DNA of 64,000 bases from Candidatus Omnitrophota bacterium (GTDB taxonomy: Bacteria > Omnitrophota > Omnitrophia > Omnitrophales > Aquincolibacteriaceae), in assembly GCA_043732705.1 (NCBI GenBank), contig JAYTHE010000011.1:71605-135604 (forward strand), read 5' to 3'. Below, in pieces: positions 32,646-64,000 of this stretch. The notes beneath the pieces were generated by a model. The model saw only the letters and a list, made by a program, of their open reading frames with translations, searched no databases and was not told the DNA's origin. Position 1 is the first letter of the stretch; each line of letters starts with the position of its first letter. Both the position numbers and the translations under genes were made by a program.

Positions 32646-32687
32646 TCATTCTTAGTTTAAATAACTAAGCATAAAGAAAAGACAGGT

Positions 32688-32720
32688 TAATCAAAAATTT
32701 ATAATTTAAATTTTTGATTA
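32688..32720. promoter_or_regulatory. Perfect 14-bp inverted repeat with a 5-bp spacer (candidate operator or regulator-binding site) ~45 bp upstream of the putative -35.
   Basis: taatcaaaaattta-taatt-taaatttttgatta. The arms at 32688-32701 and 32707-32720 are exact reverse complements. Confidence 0.35.
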
Positions 32721-33365: not shown

Positions 33366-33827
33366 CTATGAATTGACTTTCTTACCAATTGAAATGACTT
33401 GAACGGCAGGCTTTTGAACTGTTGGCGCGTAAGACGAATGAATCGGAATTGGCTGAACTTTCGGCGCCATCTTATTGGCCGGAGTAACCAGGGGCACGAT
33501 CGCATTACCAACTGATTGAATATGACCAACAGAAACCTTGACCGCACCCACTTGAGTGACGCTCTTCTCAGAAAGCTGAAATGCTGAATGAGTCGTGTCA
33601 ATAATTTTGTAAGGAATATAAGAGCCGGGAACAGACGGCATTTGCGACGGACTCGCTTGAACCCCTTGAATATTCTCAGGAACTTCGGCGCCCGAGGTCT
33701 TCTCACCCATGAAAATCTCAGCATTTCCATGCATACGGCTCTGGCTTTTTAAAAAAAAGATGACGGCAGTGCACGCCGCAACCCCTATTACTATTGAGAC
33801 TATCATTTTTGTGGAAATGTTTTTCAT
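33366..33827 (-). CDS. Small N-terminally membrane-anchored protein (153 aa).
   Basis: ATG at 33825-33827 (minus), 35 nt after the preceding ORF. Hydrophobic segment IVSIVIGVAACTAVIFFL near the N-terminus. Weak AGGACC about 12 nt upstream. Ser/Pro/Val-rich remainder. No recognisable family. Confidence 0.5.
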   Translation of the reverse strand: MKNISTKMIVSIVIGVAACTAVIFFLKSQSRMHGNAEIFMGEKTSGAEVPENIQGVQASPSQMPSVPGSYIPYKIIDTTHSAFQLSEKSVTQVGAVKVSVGHIQSVGNAIVPLVTPANKMAPKVQPIPIHSSYAPTVQKPAVQVISIGKKVNS

Positions 33828-33862
33828 GAATTTAATTAGGTCCTGTTTTTAGAGAACTACGT

Positions 33863-34270
33863 TTAACTCACTTGTTGGGCTTCAGTTTCGGCCGGAAGCG
33901 CCGCTTGCTTGACCAATTTTAATTGATTGTCATACTTGAAAAGACGCCCGCCGATCAACACAACAAACGATCCGTCTCCGAAAGCGGTAACAACGGGTTG
34001 ATAAGATTGTGCACCCATCATCCGTGAGCCGGGAGGCATCATCCCCATCATAGAATAAGGCGGGTAACTGTGCCGAGCTGCACGATTGGCTGCGGCAAGT
34101 CGAGCTCGCTCCGTAGCAGACATCGGCATTGATATTGCGGCAGCAGGATCAGTCTTGGCCTCGACAGTCTTAGCCGGATCCGTTTTTGTCGGCGTTTCAG
34201 CAGCCAAAGCGGAACATGCAAATACAAAGCAAAATAAAAAAAACAACGAGACCGTTTTTTGTATATTCAC
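33863..34270 (-). CDS. Small secreted Met/Pro-rich protein (135 aa) with signal peptide and GTG start.
   Basis: GTG start at 34268-34270 sits 4 nt after a strong SD, AGGGGGA (minus strand of 34275-34281). N-terminus NIQKTVSLFFLFCFVFACSALAAE is signal-peptide-like. It begins 66 nt downstream of the gene A stop on the same strand. Confidence 0.6.
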   Translation of the reverse strand: MNIQKTVSLFFLFCFVFACSALAAETPTKTDPAKTVEAKTDPAAAISMPMSATERARLAAANRAARHSYPPYSMMGMMPPGSRMMGAQSYQPVVTAFGDGSFVVLIGGRLFKYDNQLKLVKQAALPAETEAQQVS

Positions 34271-34284
34271 AATATCCCCCTGTG
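34271..34284 (-). promoter_or_regulatory. Shine-Dalgarno sequence for the 135-aa ORF.
   Basis: Minus strand reads ACAGGGGGATATT-GTG, i.e. AGGGGGA 4 nt before the GTG start. Confidence 0.5.
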
Positions 34285-34336
34285 CTGAACGCAGAGCACT
34301 ATACCATAATTTAAATATTTTTAAACACCGATCAGA

Positions 34337-37300
34337 TTAAGCGGCTGATTTGACTTTTTGGACGGCAAGCATTTCGTCTATTAACGATTTTAGCATTTCG
34401 CGCAGTGCACTATAGTGCATGATATTTCCTGGCTTCACGTCCCCACGCAATAAGTGTTCAAGAAATTCTTCCTTACCTAAAATTGCCGCAAGATGACCAG
34501 CCATAGCTGGTCTTTCTGCGGACTCATTTACCTCCACCTGAATAACGTTGGCAGTTTTTCCAAGTTCATCGAAAAATTTATCTTCGGCCGAGTGGGCAAC
34601 AATGCCTCCCAACACCAAGAACGTGGTGTGAATCATACTACCGCGTAGCTTAATCGCTTTTTGCGTTTCCGCGAGCGCAGTTAGACTGCGAATTACTTTA
34701 TAACCAAGCTCTTCGTAGCTCTTGATCAAATCCGGTGACGCGTCCGACAAAGCATAAACAAATGTAGCTGTATTCAACCGTCCAAACATAGATTGAAGAG
34801 GATGGGATGCAGTTCCGCCTTTAAGAAATCCTTCAATGTCTTCTACGACTGACAGACTTGTTGTTTCTGTTCCAAGCAGATAGAGCAAACGATCGATTGT
34901 GTCAATATTTTGGGCTGTAAATTCATTTTGATCAATAATCATCCCTAGCTTCGTCGCATAGTAAGCAAGAATTTCTTGCAAGATATCCCGGTTCCGATCT
35001 GTATCTTCATGACCATAGCGACTGTTAAACACGGCGTAATAAGTTGCAAGTTCCGGAATTTGTTTAATACGTATGAGCAATGCTCTAACATTTTCGTCTT
35101 TTAAGTTTGCATGAACAGCTTCATGCAATATTCCTGCTGCAATTAAATTAACATTTTCCGGGGTGAGTTTTTTGCCGTTGATCAACGTCTGCTCTCGATA
35201 CTGCTCCAACAATCCCGTCGCGTCATTATCAACATAGGCCATCACTTGACCATTTCTAAAAATTTCATCATGGTCAAGTGTTCCCGGCTGAATCACTTCG
35301 AACTTATCTTTCGTGGGCAATTCCTCATCTCCCATCAATACCCCTAAGATTGACCCCTTAGCGTTAGAACGAGTTGCCTCAGCCTGCGCCCAAGCCAAAT
35401 TAAGCAACTCTTGCGAGTCAGATTCAACGGGGATTGTCGCTATGGGGGCAGACCCTGCCCGATCTTCCAATCGAACGGATCCATCAGCGCCATGGTTAGC
35501 GTTCGACACACCTTGAGACAAGCCCACACCATCTCTCAACTCAGAACGTTTGGTCCCGTCACGCATCTGATCCCCGGTACCCGCAGGAAGCTCCACAGAA
35601 GTCGCTTCAACCACTGCAGCTTCATCGGAAGTTACCCCGGTAACAACAGGTTTTGTTAAGTCAATAACGTAGCTTTCAACTTTTGTTCCGCGCTTCCAAC
35701 CTTCCATCTCCTTGCCTTTATACACTTCAAAGCCCACCTTATCCTTGTTAGTCAACGAGGACCCTTTCAAGGTTGTCCCACGAATCCGTGCCACGCCAGC
35801 TTGCCGCAATACCTCTAATGCAGTTTTTTGAAAAGCAGCTCCTAAACCACTACCTCTGAAATCTGGACTAACAACAATGTCATCAATCATATAATCACTA
35901 TCATCAACCAGAATAGTCGCAAATTCCGCATCAATCGGTGATTCATTATCAGCAATAAAGTGGCGTGCTTTTAATTCTGGTTTTTGTTTCCAAACAGACT
36001 GGTAATTTTTTACGGGACTCGTGCTGATCATTGCCGCCACATCCGAAGGATCCGACGGATTTAACCATACAAAAATCTCACTCCCACCCTTACTTACACT
36101 GTTCTCAATATTCGCAAGAATACCTATAGCAGCAGCGCGCGCTTGCGCAGGAGACTGCCCTTCTTTTAACGCATCTTTTTCATGTAAGGCAAGCATGCTT
36201 GCATACATTTCACCTTGGGGAGAAAAGTAGCTTGAAAGCTCCGCTTCTGTTTTAAGCGTGACAAGATTAAATGAATTTGGATCTGATTTAGCAGCCTGAG
36301 CTCTCTTTGCAGCATTTTTTACTAAACCAGGCAATTTAAACTCACTGTCCTTGTTAAATAAATCATCGTGGGGGGCCGCATCAGAAATAGTTGAAAGCAA
36401 GTCAAAAAGCTTGCCCCTGCCTTCCGCACCGGTCGCGCCAAAATTTGTTGCCGCCTCTTCCATAAATTGGCTAAACTGACGAAGCTCAATACCCACCTGA
36501 TCTCTTATTGATCGCCGCTCCGAAGCACTCATTTTTAAATGCTTCATCAAGAAATTGGGTAAATAACCTCTTTCCAGATTATCACGGAGATCGCGTAAGA
36601 ATGAAACCGCAAGAATGGCATCTCCTTCTCGCGGAATTTGCGCTAAATGAGATTTATATTCACGAATAATTTCACGCCAAACATAATTTAATCGATCTGC
36701 GCGATTCGCGCGCGCCTTGTCCGGAGAACTCTGCAGAGGATCAATTAAGTGATTATATTCATGCGCCAAAGTTTCTTTTTGATCAACGCGTGCTTTCCGA
36801 GTCATTCTTTCAACCGGACTCATGAAAATCATGCCGCCCATCTTATTAAAGAGAGAGTTCTTGCCAAATTGCCACTTCATATCTGCCCAACCCAAAACAC
36901 CTGAATCGTGAGTTGCGGCAACAGCAAAAGTGTCCCAACCTTTACGTGTTTTGAAGCGAACTGACACAGCTTCTCCACTCAAATCCATTGGAAGCATGTT
37001 TCCATTCTCATCTTTCAAGTCTTCAAGTCTTGTCAAAACAATTTCAGCCTCTTTGAGCATATCTGCAGTAACTTTGGGAGCCATAGACTCCCCGGCATCA
37101 TTAAGTCTAGGGTCATCAGAATCACCATTTACAAGATCTGCTATCTTTTGACGAAGCGCTTCAGAATCAGCATCATCTCCTGACAAAACAACATACTTTT
37201 CTATCGTTTTATCAATTAAGGTCCGCGTCTGTGGTGTTAAACCTAACTGCACGATAAGATCGGCAATGCCAGACTGAATGGCATCATGACTATCCTTCAT

Positions 37301-40300
37301 TCTTTTCTTAAATTCAGCTATCTTACCCGCTGTTTCAGGGTCCTTTAAAGTTGCGTTAAGACCTTCTTTTTTCTCTTCATCGACATTGGGTTTCTCCTGA
37401 TAAACGTCCATCATCCACACCAAACCACGCACCCACTTCTCAGCATACTCCATGCCCTTACGCTGCATTTTCAGAGGGTCATTATCGAGCAACGCCTTGA
37501 GTTCTTTAATTTCTCGCGCGCTCACAACATCTTCCCCGCGCTTAATATTTTCAGGCTTTTTATTCTCAGCAGCTTTTTGTTTTAAAATTTCTTTTGCTAA
37601 TTTTTTATCGCCAGATTGAACCGCATTCAAAAACCTCATCAACCAACGCGACATATCCACACGCGCAAAATATTTATCCTGCATTTCAAAAGTTGAGCGT
37701 ACTTTCCCCATATACCAATTTTGCAGACGTTGTAACTCACTCAGCCCGCCTGATTTAAGGGAACGTTCGTTAGCCTGTAATTCTTTCATACGTAAAAAGT
37801 TATCACGAGTTTCCTTGTCAAGCGCACCTAACCGCGCTTTAAAGCCTTTAATCTCCTCTGTCTCGCGCCCGAGCGACATAAACTTTTTAATATTTTTCTG
37901 GCTTAATGCCTTAATTAGATTGGTGCGCTGTTCTTCCAGGCTCTTTAATTTCTTTGATAACCCCATGATCTCTGAATGTGATTTTTGATTCAAATCAACC
38001 ATAACAGAAATCTCATCCTGATACTTTTTAAATGGATCATCGTTAAGATCCGCTGCTTCACGATAGGTTGACATCTTGCGCTGATAGAGTGGGTCCATAT
38101 ATTTCAACATTTTTCCAAGCCCCGAATAAATATCTTGGCGTTCTTGAGAATCAGGCGGTAACGCGCGCAAATAAAGCGCTGCAAAGTACTCCGCAAAAAA
38201 GTCACGGAAAATTTGTCCTTGAGAGTCCGAACCTTGTTTCTCAAGATGCTTTTCAACCTGCTGAAGCATTTCAAGCTGTCGTTTACCGGCGGCTCCTTGC
38301 TTCTTCAATGCAGCAATTTGCATTTTTAAAATTGGCTTAATAACCGCATCTTCGTCATGCTCCATCGTTTCATGCAACATAAACGCGCGCAATACAGAAT
38401 TCACTTCTTCGCGCGATCCACCATCCACAAAAAGCATATTCGCTTTTAAGAGCAAGTCTTTATTAAAGAACATCGTGTCACCACGCATATAAGCCGCCGT
38501 GTCAGCATCGGGATCACTTCGCTTTTTAATTTTTGCAATTGAATGCGCGCCACGAGCCTTATGGGCGCACTCTTGATCCGTCTTGCATTGATCCGCTGAC
38601 TTAAGTAGTGTTGCCTTTGTTTGTATAGCAATTTCATCAAGCAAGTCTTCGCGCGCAGCACCTAATCCAAATGCGGTTAATAAGTTTGCCCACTCCAAAA
38701 CATGCCCAGGGTGATTTTTTGACGAAGCCAGCCTTTGAATCTCATCTTCAAATGCTTTTTTCTCACTATCAATTTCATCCTGTGGCTTAGCCCCCCAAGT
38801 AGCTGAAGCAGTCTTCAATTTAGTTGCCATATCCCTGTAATCTTTTAAGAAATCTGCTTTCTTACTCTGACGCGCCGTGCTTTCAATAAGGTTTGGTGAA
38901 TAATTTTCAACGTTATACGCCCTAGCTAAAATTTGAATGGTTTCAGAACCCAAACCTTCCATTGAACTCCATAAGGCATCCAAATCCTGAGTAGTTACTG
39001 TCCGACCATCGCGAACTATTCTTGCTAAAACAGTGTCTGCATGAGCAACCGCCGTTAATTCACCGACGAGCAAATCACTCAAATCACCTCTCGCGCGCAT
39101 GGCCAAATATACTTGCTCACTCAGTGGTACCGCATTTTTATCAATTGCAAGTAGCGCGGCATTAAACTGCTCAAAATTTGGATTTTCAATTCCCTGTTTT
39201 GCAAGTTCATCCATAATAAGCGGAACGGCTACAGGCCCTTGTCCAAACTGTTTCCCCGCCGCAATCGCGATGGTTGCATAGGCGAATTGCTCCTTGGCAA
39301 GGGGGTCTGATACTATCGTCGCTTCAACCCGCTTCTTAAATTTTTCAGTTAATCCCGAACTCAAATCATCGCTTGGCTTTCCAATAAAAAAACTGGATAG
39401 ACGCAAACGCACTTGAACAAACCAATAAGGTAAAACATATTTAAATAGCAAGCCAAAGCGCGTTTTAAATGCCTTCGGACCGAATCCGCTACCATCAATC
39501 GTTATTTGGCGATCCAAAACTTCTTTAAGAGCTTTAGTCGCATCAGCACCAAGCATTGATGCGGGTTGAGCAGCTAAAATCTTCATGATCCTAGGTGAAA
39601 GCAAAAACAAGCTCGCGCCAATCACAATAATCGCTGCGCCGATTCCAACTAAGGTTAAAACCCCTGCTACGAATCCAAGAGCACTACCTCCCACCAAACC
39701 AAACCCAGCCAGCTTAACAAATCCAACGGCAAAAGCGGCTGCAGCCGCAAATAAGATTGATGCGCTCTTCATGCTTGGAACCGACACCATAGATTTAAAT
39801 ACAGATGTGAAAATTGACGCAACAAACTTTGCAAATCCTTCACGCCATTTACCCACTCCGCGCGTCTCGTTAAGGGCCTCTTGAGCAATGTGCGCAAAAG
39901 CTGCAAGAGGTTTTTTAGGAATTCCTTCTACTGTTGACTTAAGGGTTTTGAGATATTGCTCCACCGTCATCGTCGAGTACGCCGATCCAACAGCCGCAAC
40001 AAATTTATCGTGGTATTTTTCCATTCGGATCAAATCTTCATCCGAAAATCCTTGTGCCTGCAACAAAAGAAGATTGAATGTACTCGGATCATATTTATTC
40101 CCATCAAGAAGATATTGAATAGTATCTGTACGATCAAATACGCCACCCGGCATCCAGGTGCTCAGTAAGTCACGAATACCATTAATTAAATGTCCAAGCC
40201 CAGGAATACGAACTGCCAAAGCTACGAGGCTATTTTGCCAAACCCAATTATCAAAGAAGGCTTTTGTTTTTTCCCGAACAGATGAATCTAAACGACTGCT

Positions 40301-58300: not shown

Positions 58301-61300
58301 GGTTGCATTACCAATTCCAAAGCCGCCTAAAGTAAGACCCGCACTAATCGTTCCGTCGAAAGCGATATTAAAAAATGAATCAGCCTGAATAAGGTTGCCA
58401 GTCAAATCATAAGTCACCTGATTTAAAATTCTGGTTGATCCGTCTTGGAGCAGCCCTTTTTGCTGCCATGTGGTTGTCCCATCTGCGTTTTTAAATTTGA
58501 TTAACGAAGTCGCTGTTAGCGTGGTGCCACGATCCGTTTGATTACCTGAGTTATTAAAGTTGGATTGAACCCCCATCAAATGCCCTGACGAACTATAACT
58601 GTAACTATCAGTACCGCCGCGATCATTCAGCCTTGATTCGAAAACAACTTTGCCGGCGTCATTGACAAGCTGATAACCGGTCGCCGTGAAATGCATTATT
58701 TGACCCGTGGACTCATCTGTGGCAATCACGTTGCCTGCTTTATCAATGCGGCCGTTGTTTAGATTAGTTTCTTCTACTGTATTACTTTGTTCATTGATAA
58801 GTTCGGACTTATCAACCACCACCCGGCTGCGGCCTTGGCTATCGACTTTCAAACGCGAAGTAAATTTTTGATAATGTCCTTCATTATCTTTGATCGCATT
58901 AAACGTCACGCCTTTAAAATAACCTTGCGCTCCATTTTTAATAAAATCGAGCGTCCCCTGGTCCAGGTTGCCACCGCTACCGGTTTCTTGAAGTTTGTCA
59001 AACCCAGCCTTTCTGTCAAATGCATGCCAATCCCCAGCAATTCCATACCCAGCATCAACTAAATTATCAATCATTTGCCCTGTCCATATTGTTTCCTGAC
59101 CATATATAAGGCCATTCATGGGTGAAGCCCCGCCGTAAACACCCGCGCAATGTAAGTAATTGTAACCACTACATGTAAAATCCGGAATCCTGAGCGGATC
59201 CTCAAGTTGTTTCTTATAGTCATCAAGTGATTTATTCGCATCGTCCTTGATCTTTTGGATGTCGGCAATTTTTTGGTCATATTGCACTTTAAGGGAAGCC
59301 AGTTTATTCGCAGCGGTATTACGCGCCTTGTTCTCAGATTCATTCAGTTTATCGCGAGTATGTTCCCAAGTTTTTAACGCCTGCAATTTTTTGGCCGCCG
59401 CCCACGTCTGCGCATTGTCATAGCGACCTGCGCCGACACCCACTTTAATATCTAAATACCCCTCGGCCATGACCTGCGCAAATGCCGCGTCATAAGTCAA
59501 TCCGTGCAATTGCCAATAAGTAACACGTTCATTAACAACTCGAACCCCCTCGTCGGCATCCGCATTCGCATTATCAAGATTTTGCTGCGCTTCGTCGCGC
59601 TGCTTTTGAATAGAAGCTAAAGTTTTATTTAAATTAGTAACGATCGGATCTTTTTGTTGTTTGTACCAAGCATCAATCAACGCTTTCATGTTGTTATATT
59701 GAGTCGAATTGTTCGTCCTTAATGTGGCGATGGTAGTAAGTTCATCACCGGCGCGTTTTGTTTCGTTATAATCCTTGATGATATTGTCGTAGTCACGACG
59801 ATAGGCATCCCACAAATCGTTATGTTGCTTAAGATAGTCCTTAGCCGTACTCGTTTTGGGCCCTTGAAAATACTGTGAAAAATCAGTAAATGCGTAAACC
59901 TGCGCGGACAAGCTTGACCCCACCGCACTGTAGAAGCTTCTGATTTGGGGGTAAGACTCATGACAAATATCGCCGGCGTTAGAAAGACAGTCGGTGATTT
60001 TTCGGTATTCCATATCTTGGTCTTGGGCTTTCTTAAAAAGTGCTCCCATCTTTATTTTCCAGGCATCCACGATTTCTTTTGTTGTGTCACCCTTATTGAT
60101 GTCCTTTAATGCAGGATCGGAGTTGTCGGCATTCATTGTTGCGTACCCAAGATAATATTTTAGTTCAAGTCTTTCCGCTTGCCAGCCGTTTCCAAAATAA
60201 TTTGGTACCACGTCACCATTTGCATCTTTATTATCAACGCAATTTTTACCGTCCGCGTCACAATTTTGTAAAAAGCGATCTATCGTCCAATCCTTATCGT
60301 AAAGGCCGTTCTCATCCTGAAAAATAGCGCGCTCGCGATAGAAGGTATTGATCGCTTCTTCCAAGCCGCCGGCGTATTCATCCGCATGCGTTGCGGCCTT
60401 ATTAATATCTTTTTCCAGGCCCAAGAGCCTTGAATTATCAAAAACTAAATCAGCCGTATTGGTGGGATAAGCGACCGGCAATACGACATTCGTTTCATAG
60501 TTATCATTTTTGCCAATCAAACTGTTAACTTGCGCCCTGGCAGCGGCACTCTTGGCACCCTTTGCATTTCGACCGGCTATATAATCTGCCTGCAATGTCG
60601 CTGTCAATGTAGCTGCAGCTTGCTGGCATATCGGGAGACCACCACCAGCCCCATCACAATGATGCGCAACATTAACAGTCTGATAAGCAGCATTTGCGGC
60701 ATCATCTTTTGATTGTGTGTCCTGATCGATAAGAGCATTATCCGTTTTATTCTTTTTTGCGATAACATCGACTTGGCTGTTTAAGCTTTGAACTTGTGTG
60801 TCAATCGCCTGAATTTGAGAAATCATTGACTGATAAGCGGCGATGGACTTATCGTAATGGTCTCTTGTATCTTGATTGCGCTTTTCAAAAGTGTCTTTTT
60901 GAAGTGCTGTTTTGAGCTCATTCAATGCTGCAATGTACTTTGTGAGCATCGCGTTGGTTTTAAGACCTGCCCCCGTAGTCAGCCGATCAACATAAGCCAA
61001 TTTCGAGTCAATAATGTCGATTTGATCCTGGCGATAAGGGCCTGTACCCCCATAATACCGGCTGGGGTCATTCCTTTCGGCAGTCAGCTCAGCAATTTTT
61101 TCTTGAACGCCTGCAATCCGATTTGCTTGGCTGTAGGAAAGATATATTCCGTCCGCGCTCACAGGTACTGCAGTGCAAAAATTCGGAGTTGTTCTGCAAT
61201 CATAACCATATTCTCCGATTTGATACTCGTTCCAATTCGAGCCCCATGTCGAGAGGTACCATTTCTGATCGTCTTCGGCATCCTTTTTATCATCGGTAAA

Positions 61301-63997
61301 TGCCTTAGCCCAATCGGTTTTGGCTTTCGTAATATAAGCAGTTGCGGCATCCGACAAATCTTTGTAAGTCGTATCACTCATGTCAATAATATCCGCAACG
61401 AGTTGCTCTTCACGGGTATTAAATTGAGCGTAATAGATACCTTGATCCGCGTAATACGAGGCGTAAGTGTTGTCTATTTTTTGAACCAACAAATCCATAT
61501 CATGTGTCCAAGGTGCCCAAAGATCTTTTTCTTGGCGCGTAATTTCGCCCGTAGCGGAAGTTTTAGTTTGGCCTTGCACAACACCGTAGGAAATTGAGTA
61601 AATTTCTTTTGTTTTAGAATCGTATTTGACGCGAATAGTCGCTTGGCTCGTATTTTGAGCATCGGCATAAATATCCACACAAATGCTTGTGCTGCCGCAT
61701 GTGTAGGTTCTACGATTCCAATATTGAGATCCTTCTTCATCCTTGTTGTCATTAGTTTGCGCTTCCAAAATTGAAATATCTAAAAATTGACCGGCGCCTT
61801 GTTGGTCATACCCACGCGTATGAATGGTGGTAATAGAGGTCGCACCATAAGTGATGCTTTCGGTAATGTCAGGATGATATTTTGTTTCGTTCCTACTCGT
61901 GTCAGTTTGCTTGTTGCCTTCATCATCATAGGAAATCGTCGTGGTCTTGGAGGTACTATGGTCCGGATTGCCGTCAGGTTGAGACCATTGCTCCGTATCA
62001 GTTGTTGTAACAGTCGGCGGATTTTTATTGTTATCTGTATCCACTCCATGAGTCTTTGTGTAATGTCTGTTTCCATTAGAATAAAAATCTGTGGTACTCG
62101 TTGAGTCTATTTGTACACCATGGGAATCACCTGTCGTTCGGGCTACTTCTGAAACTGTAACAGTGGCATAGCCGATCAACCCATCATTTCCGCAATTCGG
62201 GGTCCCATTTTTACAAACCGGTGTGCTTACATACTGGGTCGTTGTAACCGTATCCGTGCCACTCGGATCATGCGAGGTTGAAACAGATAAAGTAAGGTTG
62301 CCGTTTAAATAAGTTGACGTTGTTTCACTCGATGATCCGGCGGCAACAACAGCCGATGAAGATCCGGAAGTTCCATCTTCAGGTCGGCCGTCCTTATAAG
62401 CCTGTGTGTTCGAGTAGGCCTGACCTCGGTCATTCGTTCCCATTGAAGCCACGAGAATAATTTCGCCACGGTCATTGTAATCTGTTTGCTCTAAATAGGC
62501 TGCCGGGCTATTTCTATAATCGAGCCCTACTTTTTGATTTTGCAGAACGCCGTCTACGTCATAACTGCTCTCCCCGCGGAAATCGGTAACTTTTTCCAAT
62601 GTCCCATCATTGTTAAACTCATTGCGGTAACCGGAACTATACCCTTTAAGCGCCAGGCTTCCCTGCTCCGTAAAATAATCCACATTTTTATTTACGGAAC
62701 TGAAATGGTGCTTAATGAAGTCATATTGCGCCCCGTCGGTCGTGGTGTACATATCGACATTCACCGGTCTTGTTTTACCTGTTGGAAGATAAGTGGCGTC
62801 AGCTGTTGCAAAATTAGCATCCGATTCATAATGATAGGTTGCGGTGGTGAAATGAGATTGGTCAGTATCTTCCGTGTAATTGGCCAAGACACCAAAAATT
62901 GTTTTTGAAACAGTCCGATCAATACGATCCGGCTCAGTCGAGCGATAGGTAGAAAGCGTCTTTTGTTGAACCGAGCCGATTTGCTTGCCCACTTCAAACA
63001 TCAGCGAAAGCGCATAATCAATTTGGTCGCCGTTTGCGGTATAGGAGTTTCTTGAACTCATCCAACCACTTGCTCCGACCACTCCCGCTTTAAACGCGCT
63101 TGTGGAGTCATATTGCGCTTGGACACTGCCGATTATTTTTTTCCAACTGTCGGCGGACATGAGAATGTCAGGAATATCAGTACGATAAGTAATGGTAGTG
63201 GCACCAATCACGACCCCTGTTGAATCATATTGAACACTACCGACTGATTTTTCTGACGCGTCAAAAAATGTTTTTTCCTTAATAATTCCGGAGGGCGTCA
63301 CGGTTTGAACAAAGTTTTCAGAATCAAGCGCGATAGTGCCACCACTGCGGTATGTCTCTGTGCGACGCAGTCTAGAGTTTATATTAACATATTTTGTGAT
63401 CGTCTTCACACTTCCGTCTTTACGGTAATTTTGAGCCGCAGCCGTTTTTCCATCGATGGAAAGATAGGTCGTAGATAATTTGTAATCAAAATACTGGCTT
63501 TGAACGTTCACGTCAGACATGTCGAAAAATACAGTTCCATCAAATGCGGGAGTATTTTTTAGCTGGTAAGTATCGACGCGCACAGTTTGGTAATGACTGT
63601 TCCAAATCTGCATTGAGAGATTGAGCACCGTTCCGTTCGGACGCAACGACACCGAGTAAAGCGCGACATCCGCTGCGGCATGATGCACGTAAAAGGTTCT
63701 TGAAGAAACGTAGGATTTAGGCTGGCCATTAGCATTGTAATCGGTTGTCGCGCTTTGCGTTAAAAAGCCGGTCACATTATCATAAGTGAAATCCGTGCGA
63801 GAAACCGTGCGGCCATGCGCAATCGAAACGGATGATTCTCTCGCGCGCGTTTGGTTTGTAAGCACATTGCCGGCCACGCTGACTGTTTCGTAAATATCAA
63901 AACCCTGATGTGAAGAAGCCAAAACCTTACTATTCGCCGTATCAACCAGCACAAGCTGGGATGTCGCCAAAGAGTTAGCGGTGCATGTTCCCGACAA
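34337..63997 (-). CDS. Giant multidomain membrane protein, >=9,886 aa, 5' end beyond window end. Beta-rich N-terminal region; ~9 tandem ~110-aa repeats; multi-pass TM block; coiled-coil; SF2 helicase-like ATPase; HExxH motifs; GNAT acetyltransferase.
   Basis: Single 29.6-kb ORF in the supplied track, ending at TAA 34337-34339 (minus). Domain motifs are read from the supplied translation; see domain features. Confidence 0.9.
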   Translation of the reverse strand: MSGTCTANSLATSQLVLVDTANSKVLASSHQGFDIYETVSVAGNVLTNQTRARESSVSIAHGRTVSRTDFTYDNVTGFLTQSATTDYNANGQPKSYVSSRTFYVHHAAADVALYSVSLRPNGTVLNLSMQIWNSHYQTVRVDTYQLKNTPAFDGTVFFDMSDVNVQSQYFDYKLSTTYLSIDGKTAAAQNYRKDGSVKTITKYVNINSRLRRTETYRSGGTIALDSENFVQTVTPSGIIKEKTFFDASEKSVGSVQYDSTGVVIGATTITYRTDIPDILMSADSWKKIIGSVQAQYDSTSAFKAGVVGASGWMSSRNSYTANGDQIDYALSLMFEVGKQIGSVQQKTLSTYRSTEPDRIDRTVSKTIFGVLANYTEDTDQSHFTTATYHYESDANFATADATYLPTGKTRPVNVDMYTTTDGAQYDFIKHHFSSVNKNVDYFTEQGSLALKGYSSGYRNEFNNDGTLEKVTDFRGESSYDVDGVLQNQKVGLDYRNSPAAYLEQTDYNDRGEIILVASMGTNDRGQAYSNTQAYKDGRPEDGTSGSSSAVVAAGSSSETTSTYLNGNLTLSVSTSHDPSGTDTVTTTQYVSTPVCKNGTPNCGNDGLIGYATVTVSEVARTTGDSHGVQIDSTSTTDFYSNGNRHYTKTHGVDTDNNKNPPTVTTTDTEQWSQPDGNPDHSTSKTTTISYDDEGNKQTDTSRNETKYHPDITESITYGATSITTIHTRGYDQQGAGQFLDISILEAQTNDNKDEEGSQYWNRRTYTCGSTSICVDIYADAQNTSQATIRVKYDSKTKEIYSISYGVVQGQTKTSATGEITRQEKDLWAPWTHDMDLLVQKIDNTYASYYADQGIYYAQFNTREEQLVADIIDMSDTTYKDLSDAATAYITKAKTDWAKAFTDDKKDAEDDQKWYLSTWGSNWNEYQIGEYGYDCRTTPNFCTAVPVSADGIYLSYSQANRIAGVQEKIAELTAERNDPSRYYGGTGPYRQDQIDIIDSKLAYVDRLTTGAGLKTNAMLTKYIAALNELKTALQKDTFEKRNQDTRDHYDKSIAAYQSMISQIQAIDTQVQSLNSQVDVIAKKNKTDNALIDQDTQSKDDAANAAYQTVNVAHHCDGAGGGLPICQQAAATLTATLQADYIAGRNAKGAKSAAARAQVNSLIGKNDNYETNVVLPVAYPTNTADLVFDNSRLLGLEKDINKAATHADEYAGGLEEAINTFYRERAIFQDENGLYDKDWTIDRFLQNCDADGKNCVDNKDANGDVVPNYFGNGWQAERLELKYYLGYATMNADNSDPALKDINKGDTTKEIVDAWKIKMGALFKKAQDQDMEYRKITDCLSNAGDICHESYPQIRSFYSAVGSSLSAQVYAFTDFSQYFQGPKTSTAKDYLKQHNDLWDAYRRDYDNIIKDYNETKRAGDELTTIATLRTNNSTQYNNMKALIDAWYKQQKDPIVTNLNKTLASIQKQRDEAQQNLDNANADADEGVRVVNERVTYWQLHGLTYDAAFAQVMAEGYLDIKVGVGAGRYDNAQTWAAAKKLQALKTWEHTRDKLNESENKARNTAANKLASLKVQYDQKIADIQKIKDDANKSLDDYKKQLEDPLRIPDFTCSGYNYLHCAGVYGGASPMNGLIYGQETIWTGQMIDNLVDAGYGIAGDWHAFDRKAGFDKLQETGSGGNLDQGTLDFIKNGAQGYFKGVTFNAIKDNEGHYQKFTSRLKVDSQGRSRVVVDKSELINEQSNTVEETNLNNGRIDKAGNVIATDESTGQIMHFTATGYQLVNDAGKVVFESRLNDRGGTDSYSYSSSGHLMGVQSNFNNSGNQTDRGTTLTATSLIKFKNADGTTTWQQKGLLQDGSTRILNQVTYDLTGNLIQADSFFNIAFDGTISAGLTLGGFGIGNATVDPAAYERNKTKEIDSIRANVVPTQELRNRGSLFGIETKDSFTGKITTQWLGIGSTQFSEKIKVNEDMNGHIQVYVTLKDGTVISLGAKDGVSADTAVKNILHLGTVSTETDVRGGTFNQLKIDGLYSLVGDAFTGAKLTAAGFDKFNGEAIRADTNILRGESGFIIYRAATPLDTDFRHDSGLVNFNNLADANSYIEQIPDLISFSTFGRMADGTAFANQSFRVINDGKTLVGKISAADASGNIVSQLVNDAFSDALQHSESFAAAGIDKIHISIDKNGALNQESIDLFGLAIFSTAVTVSGRDGVFIVRQNQANNGALQIGRYESNIKNGNVRQGTLYHSGIYVTDVNGNRLVGFDNPAEFKVAVGAEIAAAGLSDKNFLVTPAGKRFLVNNGGADGNITVDLYNQSAQINLLQIDAQGNLTGHLIMRTLGKWENALNGSLSDKVWGSAALTAANHAKVDEIGGEFTQKLVVSTQNGSIVASNSNADSLYALAIKAFGSFGIRDIAAFTDTQGQVIYESLNGSVKLTGADFLLRGAGTNAGLYFAQVGQTGVKDSIDQVAAFLTGNKLADFVQSNVGQQTQGLNQSQYAVTSTAVLGDAFQQQNGAFLQGLEILINNAGLNSTTFFGVSGNALFSFNSSNLNDFINPLTSIVARGLGVNGDRQYIFFNSGEARLTVNRFNSITKNFETVNYSVKNGTLQAISLETHILGAANDVVREAVLIEQALNGVFAGIDSGAAFQFRGADGVTITAANWNLALVNAKAGFVASEHNGAQLLGVGFTHIGNVAITANSDWVKGNDGSLAFVIASAGEIVNPNNFTSAVDLSAIAGQNVFLESVNTFALANDTTVKAILFNSDHSLAGAYSFGGNEVTANLYSRKDAAGNSINISAKSKTFDQLQKLIDAQTNVITQNNSNLTTEGGASTFRNEIAKLIGPGQTILSGQSIIVTSFSLSGEARYVTGIFAFADGKEAAFAATSIDFANGRINTIDKNGREINIKTHETDFVEGKLVNVERKIQQNQFIGDLPAGLTTAETQEITAALIQHVLVNNDGSIFSPITINMQGGILNTYTTPELERQKQVVVVVDQHGVDGQVLKAGTYRYSEDRKTLNTVTESMLNKFNLTSLAKADTARVGDTLFQITIGTDGNDLLTQVLSGLGIQSKQLLMRNGEFFALAAFDGVNLEAYATPNMIKNKEFAVAGDWLKSNDREFISAGVYNWKENKVTGRVNQAMANTFNVGKLDLVNQLNTTTDTLLNVELSIVGADPSNGLNSMLAILNGWGIQNQQSVLRNGEFFARATIIGGELKAYATPDMLFNGQVAVAGGWLKEKDHREVSAGVYNFKDMKTSSTLTQLMVNKFNLGKLAEANKLNILTDSLLTSTVTIDGANSNNSFNLVLGVLAGWGIQNQQSILRNGEFFGRAVVVDGELRAYATSNMLSNGQIATTELHGSKPGEMLQAGVYSFKVVKETEVLVEERLDGLSIGGLVKADQVRAGDNLEITTVLANFLVTGMLAGMGIQSQAIITRGGQFFARATLANGTLEAYATPNMLFNGQIATTEIHGSKPGEKLDAGVYNFKLSINPKTVTQEMLVNGFVLADLAEVNQIKVGDVIEAQIVKADQLLTNVLAGFGMMNQSIITRNGEFFARAITVDGELRAYATANMLYSGQIATTELHGKAGEKIGAGVYSFSILKSPSQTMTAEMLKKFNLDGLLVTNQLKEGDKLETQTIVAHALLLDALAGFGIQSQTIITRNGEFFARASVLGGELKAYATPDMLFKGQIATTELRDTKTGRTLEAGVWNFDITKKTSTLNAEIVGLFNKLNGLLGADQVKAGDQLESQTVNAHAILLGVLSGVGIQSQSIITRDGDFFARASTVNGELKAYATPNMLYLGQVAVIQTRKDAEGKNISVADIDHFKFKRVDRALEVGEATNGLNVTDRMVGEILKAGSELQGILSGWGIQSSLSVQRNGDVLYNLRTLDAGSSLFMAFDKLGNLGGFLASDGFTPFNLIPKSETGVAHPFTATGNNAIDKTQVGYSRFVSLHGLDDSGKAKTFGLFLSDTGNIQAMISSMGTKTLDEAHFWHGIVGVNIDFFQTGGGVDSLDILYEQRQAGIFIKTDLSAEKVSEAIDLRGKRAVIFHNETMRDKHLDVVVSAVPLNGGDKQSFGMIADELIVSNSTISRDGKVLPEIGFYLSGGKLVGSILDERLQYFQNGNAYVQLFNQFSDGQFRPESSFYTVSKNGQFFGYSTASGNPMPVAYDPNQTAAWNINQQRKVNNYAQFLLPTKVPGESQDIRISLEPTVYPGGSARGSEYDTKILALKGMQFVASPLLGGDGPTLFFNADQFQMINGEIQAVGDHLGDGVHAAFFGKNGFENVYVNTDDGVHGGWTASQSRNASSAVKVSRLTYDDNGVLDQKFYGLASNIVNPTTKEIERFILLSDSAIIKGQVTGALDVNGQALEASFANAAYIFKSPDGNDWKEGQKFSKVSVANKEKYQESLKSQSYLFVDTHGDAVAQFRGLESAEFKEITRSQGFTAALLNAVSFAFTDDGLRIFKQQVGGAQSGHEVVKFFKPDSTNFAVGFERKDGKIILDPAAAVSQKIAHAVQNGIQEIKTANQNNQLGGVNLDGAIQITYLNGDLVVLNNKLDLLFESYSVSRTSSYSIAAKNDSAKTKQVDLVNEVIYFDNGSTYTRRINKTEISVDGVVSSQSSTAIYNAQYHDNVNPSLSWAWLADDAALPLNQQYHLLNQQHDGFNDFVFTAGKTGAFVRSNATGLYVPLTPYDTDGTSVKIVGNQVWVTYTGSLIGKQETLLKGLVVKYNKDNMIEPAGYQLQLDRWMSTARGFETLDFSSSIADLAKMSDLGGYNIKVDNGTLQINLSRTSQITIGLNEHGQLTMIKLLDMSTHTFAYDDAFRMQITYDSHGQVLNIIENSLLTGALGMSATKMFFVHHFNDGVYGSSENFFAGAFGLGDKIDQLSTGEKWFYGITLFVGAVAGIAAAAGFGFAAAGVGTTMTKVVAVSSVKALLLGGVQVFIVPGFIAAVTGLILDINVLKSGGLLWMAGFALPAVTATFIGPTILSSLAGIIGFVTGFAADIMVGRGWDANSFTIQTMKIISLVGMFVGILSSIGRSIGQKLTLMAMEKGGVAAAEKLTLGQALRAAAGKANFIGAANWGAGKTLAYGLWFAAERPLAILGLELTGLGTGRGIWNMVKLSIFFAGAATVGLGYLTGIDEFKNVGLIVMGAIAAVSLFVKGVEKILAARAATKLAPAAGAKAVELGLFGRIGAALQGKVTFNSITNAIVLGSALIWFYANNFSGESELSESIKKGVLLIGGLALGLRAGLFMFGNPIKLFAGFTGTIANRIFNSVQIIGVLTAWTGAILFGIGKFKTFQGQDGAWYESWGSSLLKWGLGLQVGSIFTARLFNKIAIMEGSLAAQVSLKLKDMLIKKSVTETINGLWSSAVGSIMFFKAFPVFESLFGLKHLMQWITGNEIDITVDGEAIHGWGSNFRLAYMKFKHEFFNAEGWTSSRLVHDIAMGFLLHVFGVTYSRGFAGELSNAGGLTKALWRILSPKSYERFIRNNGEKALFGVYGFVDNMLMFNVVMNGITLTQNYIIGKDPTAVDGQSGGKLNELPDMIMAFLTLPVLLGVAVLENNAAGNSTKVFFTDLSKSAILLVPQGDHNSHAVAVKEFIMMRHAAIAERIEKGNWSAEQRERLEKMKENGTYADAHALRKFLAEEAPAGEPVSPVVAATPEGSLPPLLRSDFSGVILRAVMIEASEAMGLRVTNWDHLVELQAKLQEKSEAPSSSAAPESQKTADATKLVHPAFETFQKAQKDLEEAHLGGDVHTIQEMRAQLNLAFEGVITHINGIRSAQLIGPDKSQSSPPAPGRSEALGVIEGAAKAAHPAEEAYTKALKAYNDAVAASVPQDWANKFYQNLVNARAEYFNQVLKPHLTENIDLGFNQSAPVKPTAAGQPTRTIEFKIGSKEGFRQALEKLGIRSSIEASAAMETLLGKEPVDAGVIGVFDFIFANVVAMYVSGVISLPGVASTNATDEVLQVVSRLTDSWRLNTLAAEKPDESTTTPQVQKKERVSTSVAELLGVDLTTGQYADGKKSMLPTDFLKLDARLLNESYLEPLLTIVMRSLNAGGKVPSILDNQTAKGIVEKISNAHARSEAPKVVDSPSKNAAAEKNAADKAGITTKPAEKRAQEPTKLQDARSEMFGQMDGRNVSGILLDGFYVIRSEKPASSPVRSDALAGKASSPASSGPSAPAKMLRKKNASEAGSVLTLREMLSSVRGWFSRKNKAESTESAKIEGEKAEAVLAVINGHTVILSMRTVELMALLEGAPRALIEVSGFNRKLDAHESLNLKIVHEEKTYSEKMTELGDKLEKAQSEAEKSIIKQRMELRTFEFEEQVNILKAAINELASYSDTRLAKEFSTVEEITNTLLIRALPALFDKYQEKGKEAKALIAEIQKKSEQKQQDESEMAELRKKLDTVKQELIKTQYLIEKNTSKLADFESKYESLISFVIDHGSLISKEDFADLDGRMKLFEQLQAVYFETDGQLKNAVQEKRNEIIRVLNSREGVDVMDAYDAAVKKKNKLGIRDATNQIRQMLELSGLKALSGGLREGEYGPITEERSGNNEERLINHLLLTTLHEFNLLSQWGFEEGNKIKKPTDKVIDRLELLRTGHGHLLGTESNSRVDRPASDYLGRGRSQFLAALGLEFGFDVSAGTGVGKTNAQVLGAAFWMANRHIHGGDRMALVLESSDPVLKMTKDEGVISRNALGLGVDFINANNFIAEGKQDFAGLKDAMLRNHDGVLVTDIFTKTHSYNNVDSAEARALLDYIARKIDRTVLDEAQFAAFSQTKAIIANGNRPEPVSPSMFIAGAKMVARLREEVKAGRLKQIFNEKEYIDKTTIATDKDPAARRAADEKVFYIDDQGTVFISKSAHEMIAEWKITDFARDPEISSFILGLYDEKSRMGFTLGVDANGYQKIVLKPSDEKYVYREQQSSDIPLQIASLARLIETQRGNPPERDRVLDRSELKIIDAQVKNIFGMETAKLSPADVSDKAPEAIKKELLDQKLNGFDASGEVNFDQLKKWFDIGSIGKLETKMGTPVQSNFGRGVVGLSATLPEYITLFTGNARMELGRSMPDLSWYKSRNRLSTQNYSADEKTFKDQVKDAVRKAQKNGHNYIFVVNKDLHAKWIEEALLAADMKINPNQIDKVHKETTAKELGDIAEGGENGNRYIIATERAGTGFDLARKLEASDSGNKLPTHVFAFDVQNYASHFLAQIIGRDRSNKGAVNLFYDSEALVKNLSDAIAGIRYDTFKGFLNRALIRAEEDRDLATKTTNNSDTSKLYDQRVEDLKRFITKLESLRGEGGADFSRTKLESVLRAEVGKDSSLIDLISLNVEYREALHQSQGAMAVVRTYAFDRFLMRGLRSLLELTSSDPSLKEEDKALRAIISKAESGKYSNERAILTENGVTGEEYVRNQLKTVIREVIGDRVEGTTKRVFQDSVFADLIKAGFKLEDLNVKFDVNSLEMIESALKDGGQLGFQLDAIKKENKTDGRYAIAHQQNGSVIGFAKTLILFGEFILTTHESRGLARAQQELYAQQKATQTSNPKTVEGDAEKAGVSADVIAGIRNASRGGWGQNFISSRVYNAVQFAKSFMGKVAGQGLFSPAVKMALQGVAAIANDADAEAQMNLGKSLVVNKTDPAATDPAIKALHDFANMGSDKTPTAAEINAALEGAIQVLMTLGLFDASVASNGEEMMRRLALFGGAVGLNNANIGTGFVWKAAAGILNSQYFKADLARFHRSLGGEISDRQQNVYTGRLKEEKRDIREAQTKMEGQAALRSAEDDLYRVLDSKRTRGGWWFSALTPLGQKFFSWNSWKVAILTAKYGPLSFERGENKWLTGTIATAVLAPEILLGFGALLPVAAVGLGIAATFGLSAALIGKQMFSWRGLAGVAALAAGTVALVVGLPVLVPIIASVAGGALLLSRFFSSRLDSSVREKTKAFFDNWVWQNSLVALAVRIPGLGHLINGIRDLLSTWMPGGVFDRTDTIQYLLDGNKYDPSTFNLLLLQAQGFSDEDLIRMEKYHDKFVAAVGSAYSTMTVEQYLKTLKSTVEGIPKKPLAAFAHIAQEALNETRGVGKWREGFAKFVASIFTSVFKSMVSVPSMKSASILFAAAAAFAVGFVKLAGFGLVGGSALGFVAGVLTLVGIGAAIIVIGASLFLLSPRIMKILAAQPASMLGADATKALKEVLDRQITIDGSGFGPKAFKTRFGLLFKYVLPYWFVQVRLRLSSFFIGKPSDDLSSGLTEKFKKRVEATIVSDPLAKEQFAYATIAIAAGKQFGQGPVAVPLIMDELAKQGIENPNFEQFNAALLAIDKNAVPLSEQVYLAMRARGDLSDLLVGELTAVAHADTVLARIVRDGRTVTTQDLDALWSSMEGLGSETIQILARAYNVENYSPNLIESTARQSKKADFLKDYRDMATKLKTASATWGAKPQDEIDSEKKAFEDEIQRLASSKNHPGHVLEWANLLTAFGLGAAREDLLDEIAIQTKATLLKSADQCKTDQECAHKARGAHSIAKIKKRSDPDADTAAYMRGDTMFFNKDLLLKANMLFVDGGSREEVNSVLRAFMLHETMEHDEDAVIKPILKMQIAALKKQGAAGKRQLEMLQQVEKHLEKQGSDSQGQIFRDFFAEYFAALYLRALPPDSQERQDIYSGLGKMLKYMDPLYQRKMSTYREAADLNDDPFKKYQDEISVMVDLNQKSHSEIMGLSKKLKSLEEQRTNLIKALSQKNIKKFMSLGRETEEIKGFKARLGALDKETRDNFLRMKELQANERSLKSGGLSELQRLQNWYMGKVRSTFEMQDKYFARVDMSRWLMRFLNAVQSGDKKLAKEILKQKAAENKKPENIKRGEDVVSAREIKELKALLDNDPLKMQRKGMEYAEKWVRGLVWMMDVYQEKPNVDEEKKEGLNATLKDPETAGKIAEFKKRMKDSHDAIQSGIADLIVQLGLTPQTRTLIDKTIEKYVVLSGDDADSEALRQKIADLVNGDSDDPRLNDAGESMAPKVTADMLKEAEIVLTRLEDLKDENGNMLPMDLSGEAVSVRFKTRKGWDTFAVAATHDSGVLGWADMKWQFGKNSLFNKMGGMIFMSPVERMTRKARVDQKETLAHEYNHLIDPLQSSPDKARANRADRLNYVWREIIREYKSHLAQIPREGDAILAVSFLRDLRDNLERGYLPNFLMKHLKMSASERRSIRDQVGIELRQFSQFMEEAATNFGATGAEGRGKLFDLLSTISDAAPHDDLFNKDSEFKLPGLVKNAAKRAQAAKSDPNSFNLVTLKTEAELSSYFSPQGEMYASMLALHEKDALKEGQSPAQARAAAIGILANIENSVSKGGSEIFVWLNPSDPSDVAAMISTSPVKNYQSVWKQKPELKARHFIADNESPIDAEFATILVDDSDYMIDDIVVSPDFRGSGLGAAFQKTALEVLRQAGVARIRGTTLKGSSLTNKDKVGFEVYKGKEMEGWKRGTKVESYVIDLTKPVVTGVTSDEAAVVEATSVELPAGTGDQMRDGTKRSELRDGVGLSQGVSNANHGADGSVRLEDRAGSAPIATIPVESDSQELLNLAWAQAEATRSNAKGSILGVLMGDEELPTKDKFEVIQPGTLDHDEIFRNGQVMAYVDNDATGLLEQYREQTLINGKKLTPENVNLIAAGILHEAVHANLKDENVRALLIRIKQIPELATYYAVFNSRYGHEDTDRNRDILQEILAYYATKLGMIIDQNEFTAQNIDTIDRLLYLLGTETTSLSVVEDIEGFLKGGTASHPLQSMFGRLNTATFVYALSDASPDLIKSYEELGYKVIRSLTALAETQKAIKLRGSMIHTTFLVLGGIVAHSAEDKFFDELGKTANVIQVEVNESAERPAMAGHLAAILGKEEFLEHLLRGDVKPGNIMHYSALREMLKSLIDEMLAVQKVKSAA
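35105..35135 (-). other. Second HExxH motif near the gene A C-terminus.
   Basis: AAGILHEAVHANLKDENV at ~35100-35150. Confidence 0.3.
35690..36010 (-). other. GNAT N-acetyltransferase core in gene A.
   Basis: DDIVVSPDFRGSGLGAAFQKTALEVLRQAG at ~35790-35880 matches GNAT motif A (R/Q-x-x-G-x-G/A). Confidence 0.6.
36740..36780 (-). other. HExxH motif (candidate zinc metallopeptidase site) in the gene A C-terminal region.
   Basis: ETLAHEYNHLIDP located at ~36740-36780. No third zinc ligand assigned. Confidence 0.35.
42400..44200 (-). other. SF2 helicase/translocase-like ATPase domain of gene A.
   Basis: Walker A FDVSAGTGVGKTNAQV (~44100-44135). Motif II DRTVLDEAQ verified at ~43742-43768. Motif III GLSATLP (~42905-42950). 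Helicase-C-like YIIATERAGTGFDL (~42545-42615). Motif VI AQIIGRDRSNKGAV (~42425-42470). Confidence 0.6.
47800..49420 (-). other. Multi-pass transmembrane block (~540 aa, Gly/Ala-rich hydrophobic helices) in the middle of gene A.
   Basis: Starts after ...DGVYGSSENFFAGAFGLG (verified ~49411-49470). Contains >=10 segments of 18-25 hydrophobic residues, e.g. WFYGITLFVGAVAGIAAAAGFGFAAAGV, LLWMAGFALPAVTATFIGPTILSSLAGIIGFV, IIGVLTAWTGAILFGIG. Ends near ...FFKAFPVFESLFGLKHLMQWITG. Confidence 0.6.
52300..55050 (-). repeat. About 9 tandem ~330-bp (~110-aa) in-frame protein repeats in gene A.
   Basis: Repeated unit ...GIQ[NS]Q[QST][SI][ILV]xRNGEFFARAxxxxGEL[KR]AYATP[ND]ML[FY]NGQIATTE[LI]HG... First copy LLMRNGEFFAL verified at 54782-54840. 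Last, degenerate copy SVQRNGDVLYNL at ~52380. The periodicity is also visible in the DNA (gcaaaaaattctcc... recurs). Confidence 0.75.
55051..63997 (-). other. N-terminal beta-rich, presumably extracellular region of gene A (Thr/Ser/Asn/Asp/Gly/Tyr-rich, Cys pairs).
   Basis: From the supplied translation: compositionally adhesin-like with no hydrophobic helices and scattered Cys-x(n)-Cys pairs (e.g. CRTTPNFC, HCDGAGGGLPIC, NCDADGKNC). The fold cannot be assigned by eye. Confidence 0.35.
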
Positions 63998-64000
63998 ACA

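Follow-up and report, generated by a model that had tools for sequence, protein, structure and literature searches.

Two giant genes in tandem in an Omnitrophota genome: a six-module AAA_5 and MIDAS protein beside a member of a rare family of predicted membrane giants

A 64,000-nt stretch of an Omnitrophota genome (Candidatus Omnitrophota bacterium, family Aquincolibacteriaceae; GenBank assembly GCA_043732705.1, contig JAYTHE010000011.1, positions 71,605 to 135,604), hereafter the window, is nearly filled by two giant genes, A and B, with two small open reading frames (ORFs), ORF135 and ORF153, and an AT-rich leader between them. No sequence similarity was found between A and B, each has its own family of relatives, and the pair is not conserved in the loci where those relatives could be compared. 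It seems probable on balance that these are two unrelated giants in tandem with orphan small ORFs between them, and that their adjacency reflects the clustering of giant genes and not a machine built from A and B. Gene B would be a signal-anchored giant of a family defined by its N-terminal domain (N-domain), and its conserved cargo would be a single-chain ring of six MoxR/AAA_5 modules of two alternating types together with a VWA domain bearing a metal ion-dependent adhesion site (MIDAS).

Coordinates are positions in the window, and all its genes lie on the minus strand, in the order A, ORF135, ORF153, leader, B; 98.4% of the window is coding (Table 1). No marker gene falls within it, and the homologues of its genes point to Omnitrophota, a phylum of the PVC group. 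Stop-free frames of 30 kb in DNA of 45% GC are not attributable to chance, so both giants are taken to be real genes. The 5' end of A lies beyond the window edge, so the TTG that the ORF finder lists at 63997 cannot be its start codon, while the start codon of B is backed by an N-terminal alignment with homologues. A first-pass annotation made from the letters and their ORFs had described two co-directional giants, two small ORFs and an AT-rich leader, and this layout stands on the minus strand down to its two gaps (66 nt from A to ORF135 and 35 nt from ORF135 to ORF153). The span it gave, 33366–63997, holds gene A and the small ORFs but not gene B, which is located at 1–32460.

Neighbourhoods of the A and B families

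The first-pass annotation had regarded two adjacent genes of this size as exceptional. Giant ORFs occur in most Omnitrophota lineages, and 24%–28% of sampled Omnitrophota contigs carry at least one protein of at least 10 kaa (thousand amino acids) (PMC10066038; bioRxiv 10.64898/2026.06.07.730766). For 12 of 52 sampled genes headed by the N-domain, a co-directional ORF of 1,200 aa or more ends no further than 2.5 kb upstream. Given these tandem cases and the published frequency of giant ORFs, the adjacency of two giants is not exceptional in Omnitrophota, and in such genomes adjacency alone is no proof of a functional system.

Two B orthologues have usable upstream DNA (L003 and L006; those at L007, L008 and L089 are cut upstream). 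At L003, on a 107-kb JGI contig present in three assemblies, a PilZ gene and a gene for a 724-aa protein lie upstream, with a gene for a 756-aa protein and leuS downstream; at L006, in an Omnitrophota metagenome-assembled genome (MAG; nzgw332), the upstream genes are lptE, holA, rpsT, murJ and uvrC. An A-like gene within 10 kb upstream was found in neither (0/2). Nor does a B-like gene, or a homologue of ORF135 or ORF153, follow any of the six other A-family 3' ends (0/6). Downstream of the A-family gene at L084, across a gap of 146 nt, stands a 2,656-aa N-domain gene that has no AAA modules; at L094 the gap is 299 nt, and the next gene is a co-directional giant (5,109 aa or more) that has a signal-anchor but lacks an N-domain. 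Downstream of the others lie cspA (L093), transposase genes (L091, at 13010–13750; L092, at 16636–16743), and convergent genes, among them housekeeping genes and a Bat operon with MoxR, DUF58 and VWA genes (L090). From these contexts the specific A–B pairing, like the small ORFs, appears unique to the window. The first-pass annotation had inferred a functional link and proposed synteny in related genomes as the check; with the homologues of A and B not co-localised in these contexts, that link finds no backing.

The transposases directly downstream of the L091 and L092 giants are IS3-like and ISL3-like, in agreement with published reports of mobile elements beside giant genes. The Bat operon at L090 (19040–22891; MoxR AAA_3/AAA_5, DUF58, VWA BatA) is convergent and lies 3–7 kb from the end of the A-family gene; the presence of MoxR–VWA genes there, as small genes on the opposite strand, may be coincidence.

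The first-pass annotation offered a single functional system, with A as a membrane or surface machine, B as its tethered midasin-like motor and the small ORFs as periplasmic partners. The shared strand, the tight spacing of A, ORF135 and ORF153 with B adjoining, the membrane association of both giants, the motor-like ring and ligand-binding MIDAS domain of B, and the matched composition of A and B would all suit such a system. We nevertheless hold it to be quite improbable, as the B orthologues at L003 and L006 and the six other A-family genes lack the corresponding partner, homologues of ORF135 and ORF153 occur in no fetched locus, and a 905-nt leader with a terminator-like hairpin sets B apart.

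Several points weigh against our preferred reading of A and B as clustered, unrelated giants, one of them carrying a tethered motor. The synteny of B rests on two orthologues and 10-kb flanks, and an A-family gene is possible elsewhere on those contigs. By ordinary rules the ring of B would lie outside the cytoplasm, since the N-terminus is signal-like and no strong hydrophobic segment precedes aa 10617; the same sort of topology contradiction is reported in both Omnitrophota giant-gene papers. The even-numbered modules of the ring have EE instead of DE in Walker B, which makes their activity uncertain. Finally, three of the seven A-family genes (window, L084 and L094) precede a co-directional signal-anchored giant, 146–1,900 nt downstream, which is above the random-neighbour expectation.

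This last observation favours a more generic pairing, in which an A-family giant is the upstream partner, as a membrane platform or an export or anchoring helper, of a variable signal-anchored giant cargo, B being one example. An A-family gene lies upstream of only 1 of 52 N-domain genes, yet the family is very rare (12 matches among 1.84 billion representatives in a full HMMER search). We think such a pairing unlikely: no comparable neighbour follows four of the seven A-family genes, and the giants downstream of the other three have only the signal-anchor in common, two of them also having an N-domain. Clustering of giant genes is in any case usual, and several of the contigs are short and error-prone. 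A bolder version would make the B family an independent prokaryotic invention of a single-chain, hetero-hexameric (AB)3 AAA+ ring with a MIDAS in cis, a bacterial analogue of midasin tethered to the membrane, with A-family giants as habitual or at any rate recurrent upstream partners and the motor acting on or with a membrane platform in cell–cell interaction. This we regard as a long shot, and we keep to the clustering of unrelated giants.

Table 1. Features of the window, with positions in the 64,000-nt stretch
Feature	Position	Strand	Remarks
Gene A	34337..64000	-	one frame without stops, 64000 to 34340 (9,887 codons or more); stop TAA at 34339-34337
A tandem repeats, aa 2867-3875	52376..55402	-	unit ~112 aa, ~9 copies; chunk-versus-chunk BLASTP, 31-56% identity between copies
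A first transmembrane-like cluster, aa 4879-5928	46217..49366	-	about 10 segments (Kyte-Doolittle); aa 5096-5704 conserved in P0116
A second transmembrane-like cluster, aa 7814-8127	39620..40561	-	4-5 segments (Kyte-Doolittle)
A family-defining module, aa 8431-8905	37286..38710	-	alignment A4; HExxE (aa 8543-8547) and GSDxQGQIxRDxxAE
A GNAT-containing module, aa 9235-9471	35588..36298	-	Pfam Acetyltransf_1, 23.8 bits against a cut-off of 20.7 (aa ~9350-9410)
Promoter-like site	34298..34325	-	TTTAAA, 16-nt spacer, TG-TATAGT (extended -10), in the 66-nt gap between A and ORF135; consensus scan, pattern match only
ORF135	33863..34270	-	GTG start
ORF153	33366..33827	-	ATG start
Leader	32461..33365	-	905 nt, non-coding; 36.6% GC against 44-45% in the genes
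Gene B	1..32460	-	ATG at 32460; stop-free frame, at least 10,820 codons; 3' end beyond the window
B signal peptide or signal anchor, aa 1-35	32356..32460	-	MKQKILHKILFNTGCVAILVVCLLTTQIVQPVYA/TP; hydrophobic N-terminus also in two aligned homologues
B N-domain, aa 40-530	30871..32343	-	~490 aa; motifs QDAH, EGAxG, GELSG, GGFH
B lineage-specific region, aa 531-5799	15064..30870	-	largely big internal duplications; orthologues differ here
B pre-ring region, aa 5800-6469	13054..15063	-	34-48% identity to L003, L006, L007 and L008
B six AAA_5 modules, aa 6470-9000	5461..13053	-	Pfam AAA_5, 36.5-83.2 bits each against a cut-off of 22 (modules scanned singly)
B VWA domain, aa 9470-9700	3361..4053	-	MIDAS motif DESGSM (aa 9480-9485) and TDG (aa 9614-9616)
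B hydrophobic segment, aa 10617-10635	556..612	-	only other strong one besides the N-terminus; in the non-conserved tail

Gene B: predicted ring, MIDAS domain and N-domain

The six AAA_5 modules of B have their Walker A motifs at aa 6509, 7002, 7361, 7808, 8134 and 8731. The odd modules carry GxTxGGKS, a ~100-aa insert and the canonical Walker B form LLDE, and the even modules GQSGGGK[ST], Walker B LLEE and the arginine motif SPALRSRF. Modules of like type are 31%–49% identical to one another, and this identity, together with the alternation of types, marks the ring as a two-module unit tripled. The same chain has AAA_3 as well as AAA_5 matches, plus the VWA domain. The VWA domain scores 21.6 bits in Pfam, just under the cut-off of 23.8, but its DESGSM and TDG motifs are invariant in five B-family members, and the midasin MIDAS domains come out on top, weakly (E = 0.035 and 0.14), when the family profile is run against PDB. 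About 600 aa separate AAA6 from DESGSM, and at least 1,100 aa follow the VWA domain, so it is not C-terminal. On the evidence of sequence, B is assigned to the MoxR/AAA_5 clade and is midasin-like in architecture.

A search with B aa 6600–9700 returned just seven close relatives, at 43%–50% identity, of which those with a named organism are Omnitrophota MAGs and one member of Auribacterota. Next after this family came a 4,005-aa archaeal protein from Thermoproteota (P0007), and then about 100 matches, nearly all of them eukaryotic midasins, at 21%–32% identity. The Thermoproteota protein outscores every eukaryotic midasin against the core of B (E = 5.5e-100). Six Walker A motifs were seen in it, along with AAA lid and VWA domains; by this content it is assigned as a second prokaryotic single-chain protein of multiple AAA_5 modules plus VWA.

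Midasin (Rea1/MDN1) likewise strings six AAA_5 modules together in a single chain, and its C-terminal VWA domain, with a DxSxS...TD MIDAS, would be the counterpart of the VWA domain of B. The ring of B, however, is a tripled odd–even pair without a one-to-one match to midasin AAA1–6: set against several midasins in turn, its even modules converge on a small common set of modules in each midasin and its odd ones do likewise, at 21%–40% identity, as against 31%–49% among like modules inside B. With no one-to-one map and a tripled pair, the ring would have been assembled independently, making B an analogue of midasin and not an orthologue. Of the tethered midasin-like motor proposed in the first-pass annotation, the six AAA_5 modules, the VWA domain with its MIDAS, the hydrophobic N-terminus and the matches to midasin are borne out, and strict homology is not. 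The removal of assembly factors with ubiquitin-like domains from pre-60S ribosomes, which is midasin's eukaryote-specific work, has no known bacterial counterpart, and pre-60S substrates are absent from bacteria. B also differs in adding an N-terminal extension of 6,400 aa with a signal-anchor. Midasin has a linker of ~1,700 aa and an acidic region before its MIDAS (PMC11603028), whereas B has ~600 aa at this place and no such acidic stretch, its D+E content peaking at 0.27 over 60 aa. The origin of the chain of six tandem AAA modules has been placed early in eukaryotic evolution (PMC3495828); the fused six-module MoxR/AAA_5 ring and MIDAS of the B family appear to have arisen separately from that eukaryotic chain, via tripling.

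B is also comparable to the MoxR–VWA systems (RavA–ViaA, NorQD, CbbQO, the Bat operon and conflict systems), in which an ATPase of the AAA_5/AAA_3 clade is coupled to a MIDAS-bearing VWA protein and which serve remodelling or metal insertion (PMC7159879; PMC13036017). Those are homohexamers of a protein of ~300 aa with a separate VWA, whereas B fuses six modules and a VWA in cis in what would be a membrane-anchored giant. Analogy with MoxR–VWA pairs and with midasin (PMC7159879; PMC3495828; PMC11603028) suggests how B may work: its six modules would close into one hexameric ring, a target would be held by one of its acidic residues at the metal site of the VWA domain, and the ring would spend ATP on pulling or remodelling it. 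Catalysis is more likely at the three odd sites, whose Walker B is canonical. The huge lineage-specific stretch towards the N-terminus would serve to tether the motor to the membrane or to position it there.

Two B orthologues have a single in-frame stop inside the AAA ring (TAG at 9887–9889 of L003; TAA at 22849–22851 of L006). One site falls in the AAA1 insert and the other between the sensor-1 TMNP and the SPALRSRF of AAA4, and the frame continues unchanged past each; the stop at L003 is seen in three deposited assemblies. Each may be a sequencing error, the mark of a pseudogene or a site of read-through.

The N-domain is far more widespread than the ring. When one genome per GTDB species was scanned for its pattern, 123 occurrences were confirmed by tblastn, the best 80 of which were kept as loci (L009–L088). 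Among these 80, hosts with a named organism are almost all Omnitrophota/Omnitrophica, with one Planctomycetales and one Ca. Taenariivivens, and a genome often has several copies. The ORF headed by the domain is at least 2,000 aa long in 43 of the 80 and extends past the 10-kb flank in 49. A domain heading more than 100 mostly large ORFs is a potential marker for cataloguing giant genes. No conserved partner gene was found upstream of N-domain genes. In an alignment of 72 sequences (A2), D75, A76, H77, E105 and G106 are invariant and G363–H366 nearly so. The best identity to B among GTDB representatives is 30%–40%, which places the source genome outside that set. Sequence (profile) searches of Pfam, NCBIfam and PDB with the N-domain gave no match; one of the 72 members matches erythromycin esterase with E = 0.025, which is only a lead towards the Tiki/TraB/ChaN-like superfamily, of which the QDAH...E...GGFH motifs are also reminiscent. 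An AlphaFold2 (AF2) model built from two sequences has a mean predicted local distance difference test score (pLDDT) of 36.8, too low for a fold search. A word-indexed search with the first 1,000 aa of B was empty, and a PDB search with the first 5,000 aa returned nothing meaningful.

The core conserved in the B family is aa 5800–9750, and the tail beyond aa 9750 is not conserved. In the lineage-specific region, the internal duplications pair aa 496–1263 with 2338–3078, 1630–2280 with 4038–4700, and 4725–5286 with 5268–5842, at 23%–42% identity. Pfam matches of beta-propeller type at aa ~4470–5560 are weak and fall far under the cut-off.

Gene A and the giants of Omnitrophota

Alignments place gene A in a second rare family, separate from that of B, of membrane giants whose C-terminal core is conserved. 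Five relatives (P0113, P0116, P0117, P0118 and P0121) are colinear with A over aa ~5100–9470 at 25%–32% identity, and P0113 was located in an Omnitrophota MAG (JBAZJC01). A word-indexed protein search with the last 2,500 aa of A was empty although these relatives exist; relatives missed in this way came to light through a full HMMER search, through scans for patterns and from the surroundings of loci. Pfam finds nothing in A except GNAT, and PDB sequence searches with both halves gave no match. The family-defining module carries HExxE and GSDxQGQIxRDxxAE, both invariant across A, P0113–P0118 and P0121 (alignment A4). Its AF2 model is confident (pLDDT 77, predicted template modelling score 0.69) and consists mostly of long helices plus a small sheet; neither a fold search of PDB with this model nor a sequence search with the A4 profile gave a significant neighbour. 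Metagenome scans with the A4 alignment and with the exact 52 nt at the right end of the window found nothing.

A Kyte–Doolittle hydropathy scan, which is not a trained predictor, gives A about 15 hydrophobic transmembrane-like segments in two clusters, in agreement with the first-pass view of A as membrane-associated. Its further description as a repeat and surface protein does not fit. The tandem repeats of aa 2867–3875, whose ~112-aa unit has no Pfam match, are the sole repetitive part and make up ~10% of the protein, and the GNAT domain, because it requires acetyl-CoA, indicates a cytoplasmic part. A would thus be a polytopic inner-membrane giant with its GNAT probably facing the cytoplasm. 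The GNAT-containing module is shared with large Omnitrophota proteins at L034 (34% identity) and P0120 (32%), and also with P0119; the copies in L034 (13364–14134) and P0120 lie inside proteins headed by a B-type N-domain. The presence of this module in both A and N-domain proteins suggests that modules are exchanged between giant families.

Giant genes are a known signature of Omnitrophota, and their content is almost wholly unexplained. A and B resemble those described (Kizina 2022; Seymour 2023, PMC10066038; West-Roberts 2023, bioRxiv 10.1101/2023.11.21.568195; bioRxiv 10.64898/2026.06.07.730766) in length, at about 10 kaa or more as far as the two cut ORFs go, and in being mostly unannotatable, with scattered enzyme domains. 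They are also alike in their hydrophobic segments or signal peptide (about 15 in A, and the N-terminus and aa 10617 in B, by hydropathy scan), in poor conservation and in mobile elements near relatives. AAA_5 and GNAT are both among the domains listed for such giants (bioRxiv 10.1101/2023.11.21.568195; 10.64898/2026.06.07.730766). Giants are taken as at least 10 kaa in the 2026 catalogue and at least 30 kaa in the "giants" of West-Roberts; both genes are cut by the window, and the 10,820 codons of B and 9,887 of A, which are minimum lengths, do not reach 30 kaa within it, which also sets them below the Archaeovorin and Dockerin types there. Pfam scans of A and B found no glycosyl transferase or hydrolase, peptidase, methyltransferase, NUDIX, SecA-like or dockerin domain, just GNAT, AAA_5 and VWA. 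In the available papers on Omnitrophota giant proteins we found no description of the (AB)3 hexa-AAA_5 and MIDAS core, of the N-domain or of the A-family core.

Assembly, small ORFs and leader

Were the contig an assembly chimera joined in the AT-rich leader, A and B would be neighbours in no genome. The sole independent assembly found is a Logan contig of SRR23617244. It matches the window at 100% identity between ~45,000 and 32,998, where it ends inside the leader, which leaves the junction without independent support. Logan contigs often break in low-complexity, AT-rich DNA, however, and the junction of leader and B showed no repeat likely to confuse an assembler. Relatives of both A and B occur in Omnitrophota. 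In tetranucleotides A and B correlate at 0.93, as high as the two halves of a single gene (0.82 and 0.94), with 0.77 and 0.85 as median values against other Omnitrophota loci; in relative synonymous codon usage they correlate at 0.91. Two loci from other Omnitrophota MAGs (L027 and L044) correlate at 0.92–0.95, as similar as A is to B, so composition argues against a cross-phylum chimera only. Taken together, these data leave very little probability to a false join, and a chimera is unlikely.

The small ORFs were scored with a codon model trained on A and B, whose own windows score 0.30 +/- 0.07. In frame, ORF135 scores 0.18 and ORF153 scores 0.19, against -0.6 to -0.7 out of frame, and by this contrast both look like real genes. 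ORF135 has an N-terminus resembling a signal peptide or lipobox (…FVFACSALA/AE), and ORF153 has one N-terminal transmembrane segment and a tail rich in P, Q, S and V. Neither matches a known family or has a homologue in the 94 fetched loci. They would be orphan, lineage-specific small envelope proteins, membrane-bound or secreted. The strong Shine–Dalgarno (SD) signal reported in the first-pass annotation is present at ORF135, where GGGGGA is the only clear SD-like site; ORF153 has a weak AGGA, and B has none.

The leader is non-coding by codon score in all three frames of the gene strand and holds just short ORFs on either strand; Rfam and tRNA scans of it gave no match. A terminator-like hairpin lies at 33152–33130, 215 nt past ORF153, and several promoter-like sites were found within the leader by consensus scan, all of them pattern matches only. 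Together with the promoter-like site between A and ORF135, these patterns fit separate promoters for ORF135–ORF153 and for B. The first-pass annotation had suggested one operon of A, ORF135 and ORF153, inside which the site in the 66-nt gap would fall. ORF135 and ORF153 may be transcribed from their own promoter, and B would be transcribed separately, from the 905-nt leader. About 230–260 nt upstream of the B start, a perfect 14-nt inverted repeat at 32688–32720 (TAATCAAAAATTTA, 5 nt, TAAATTTTTGATTA) could be an operator.

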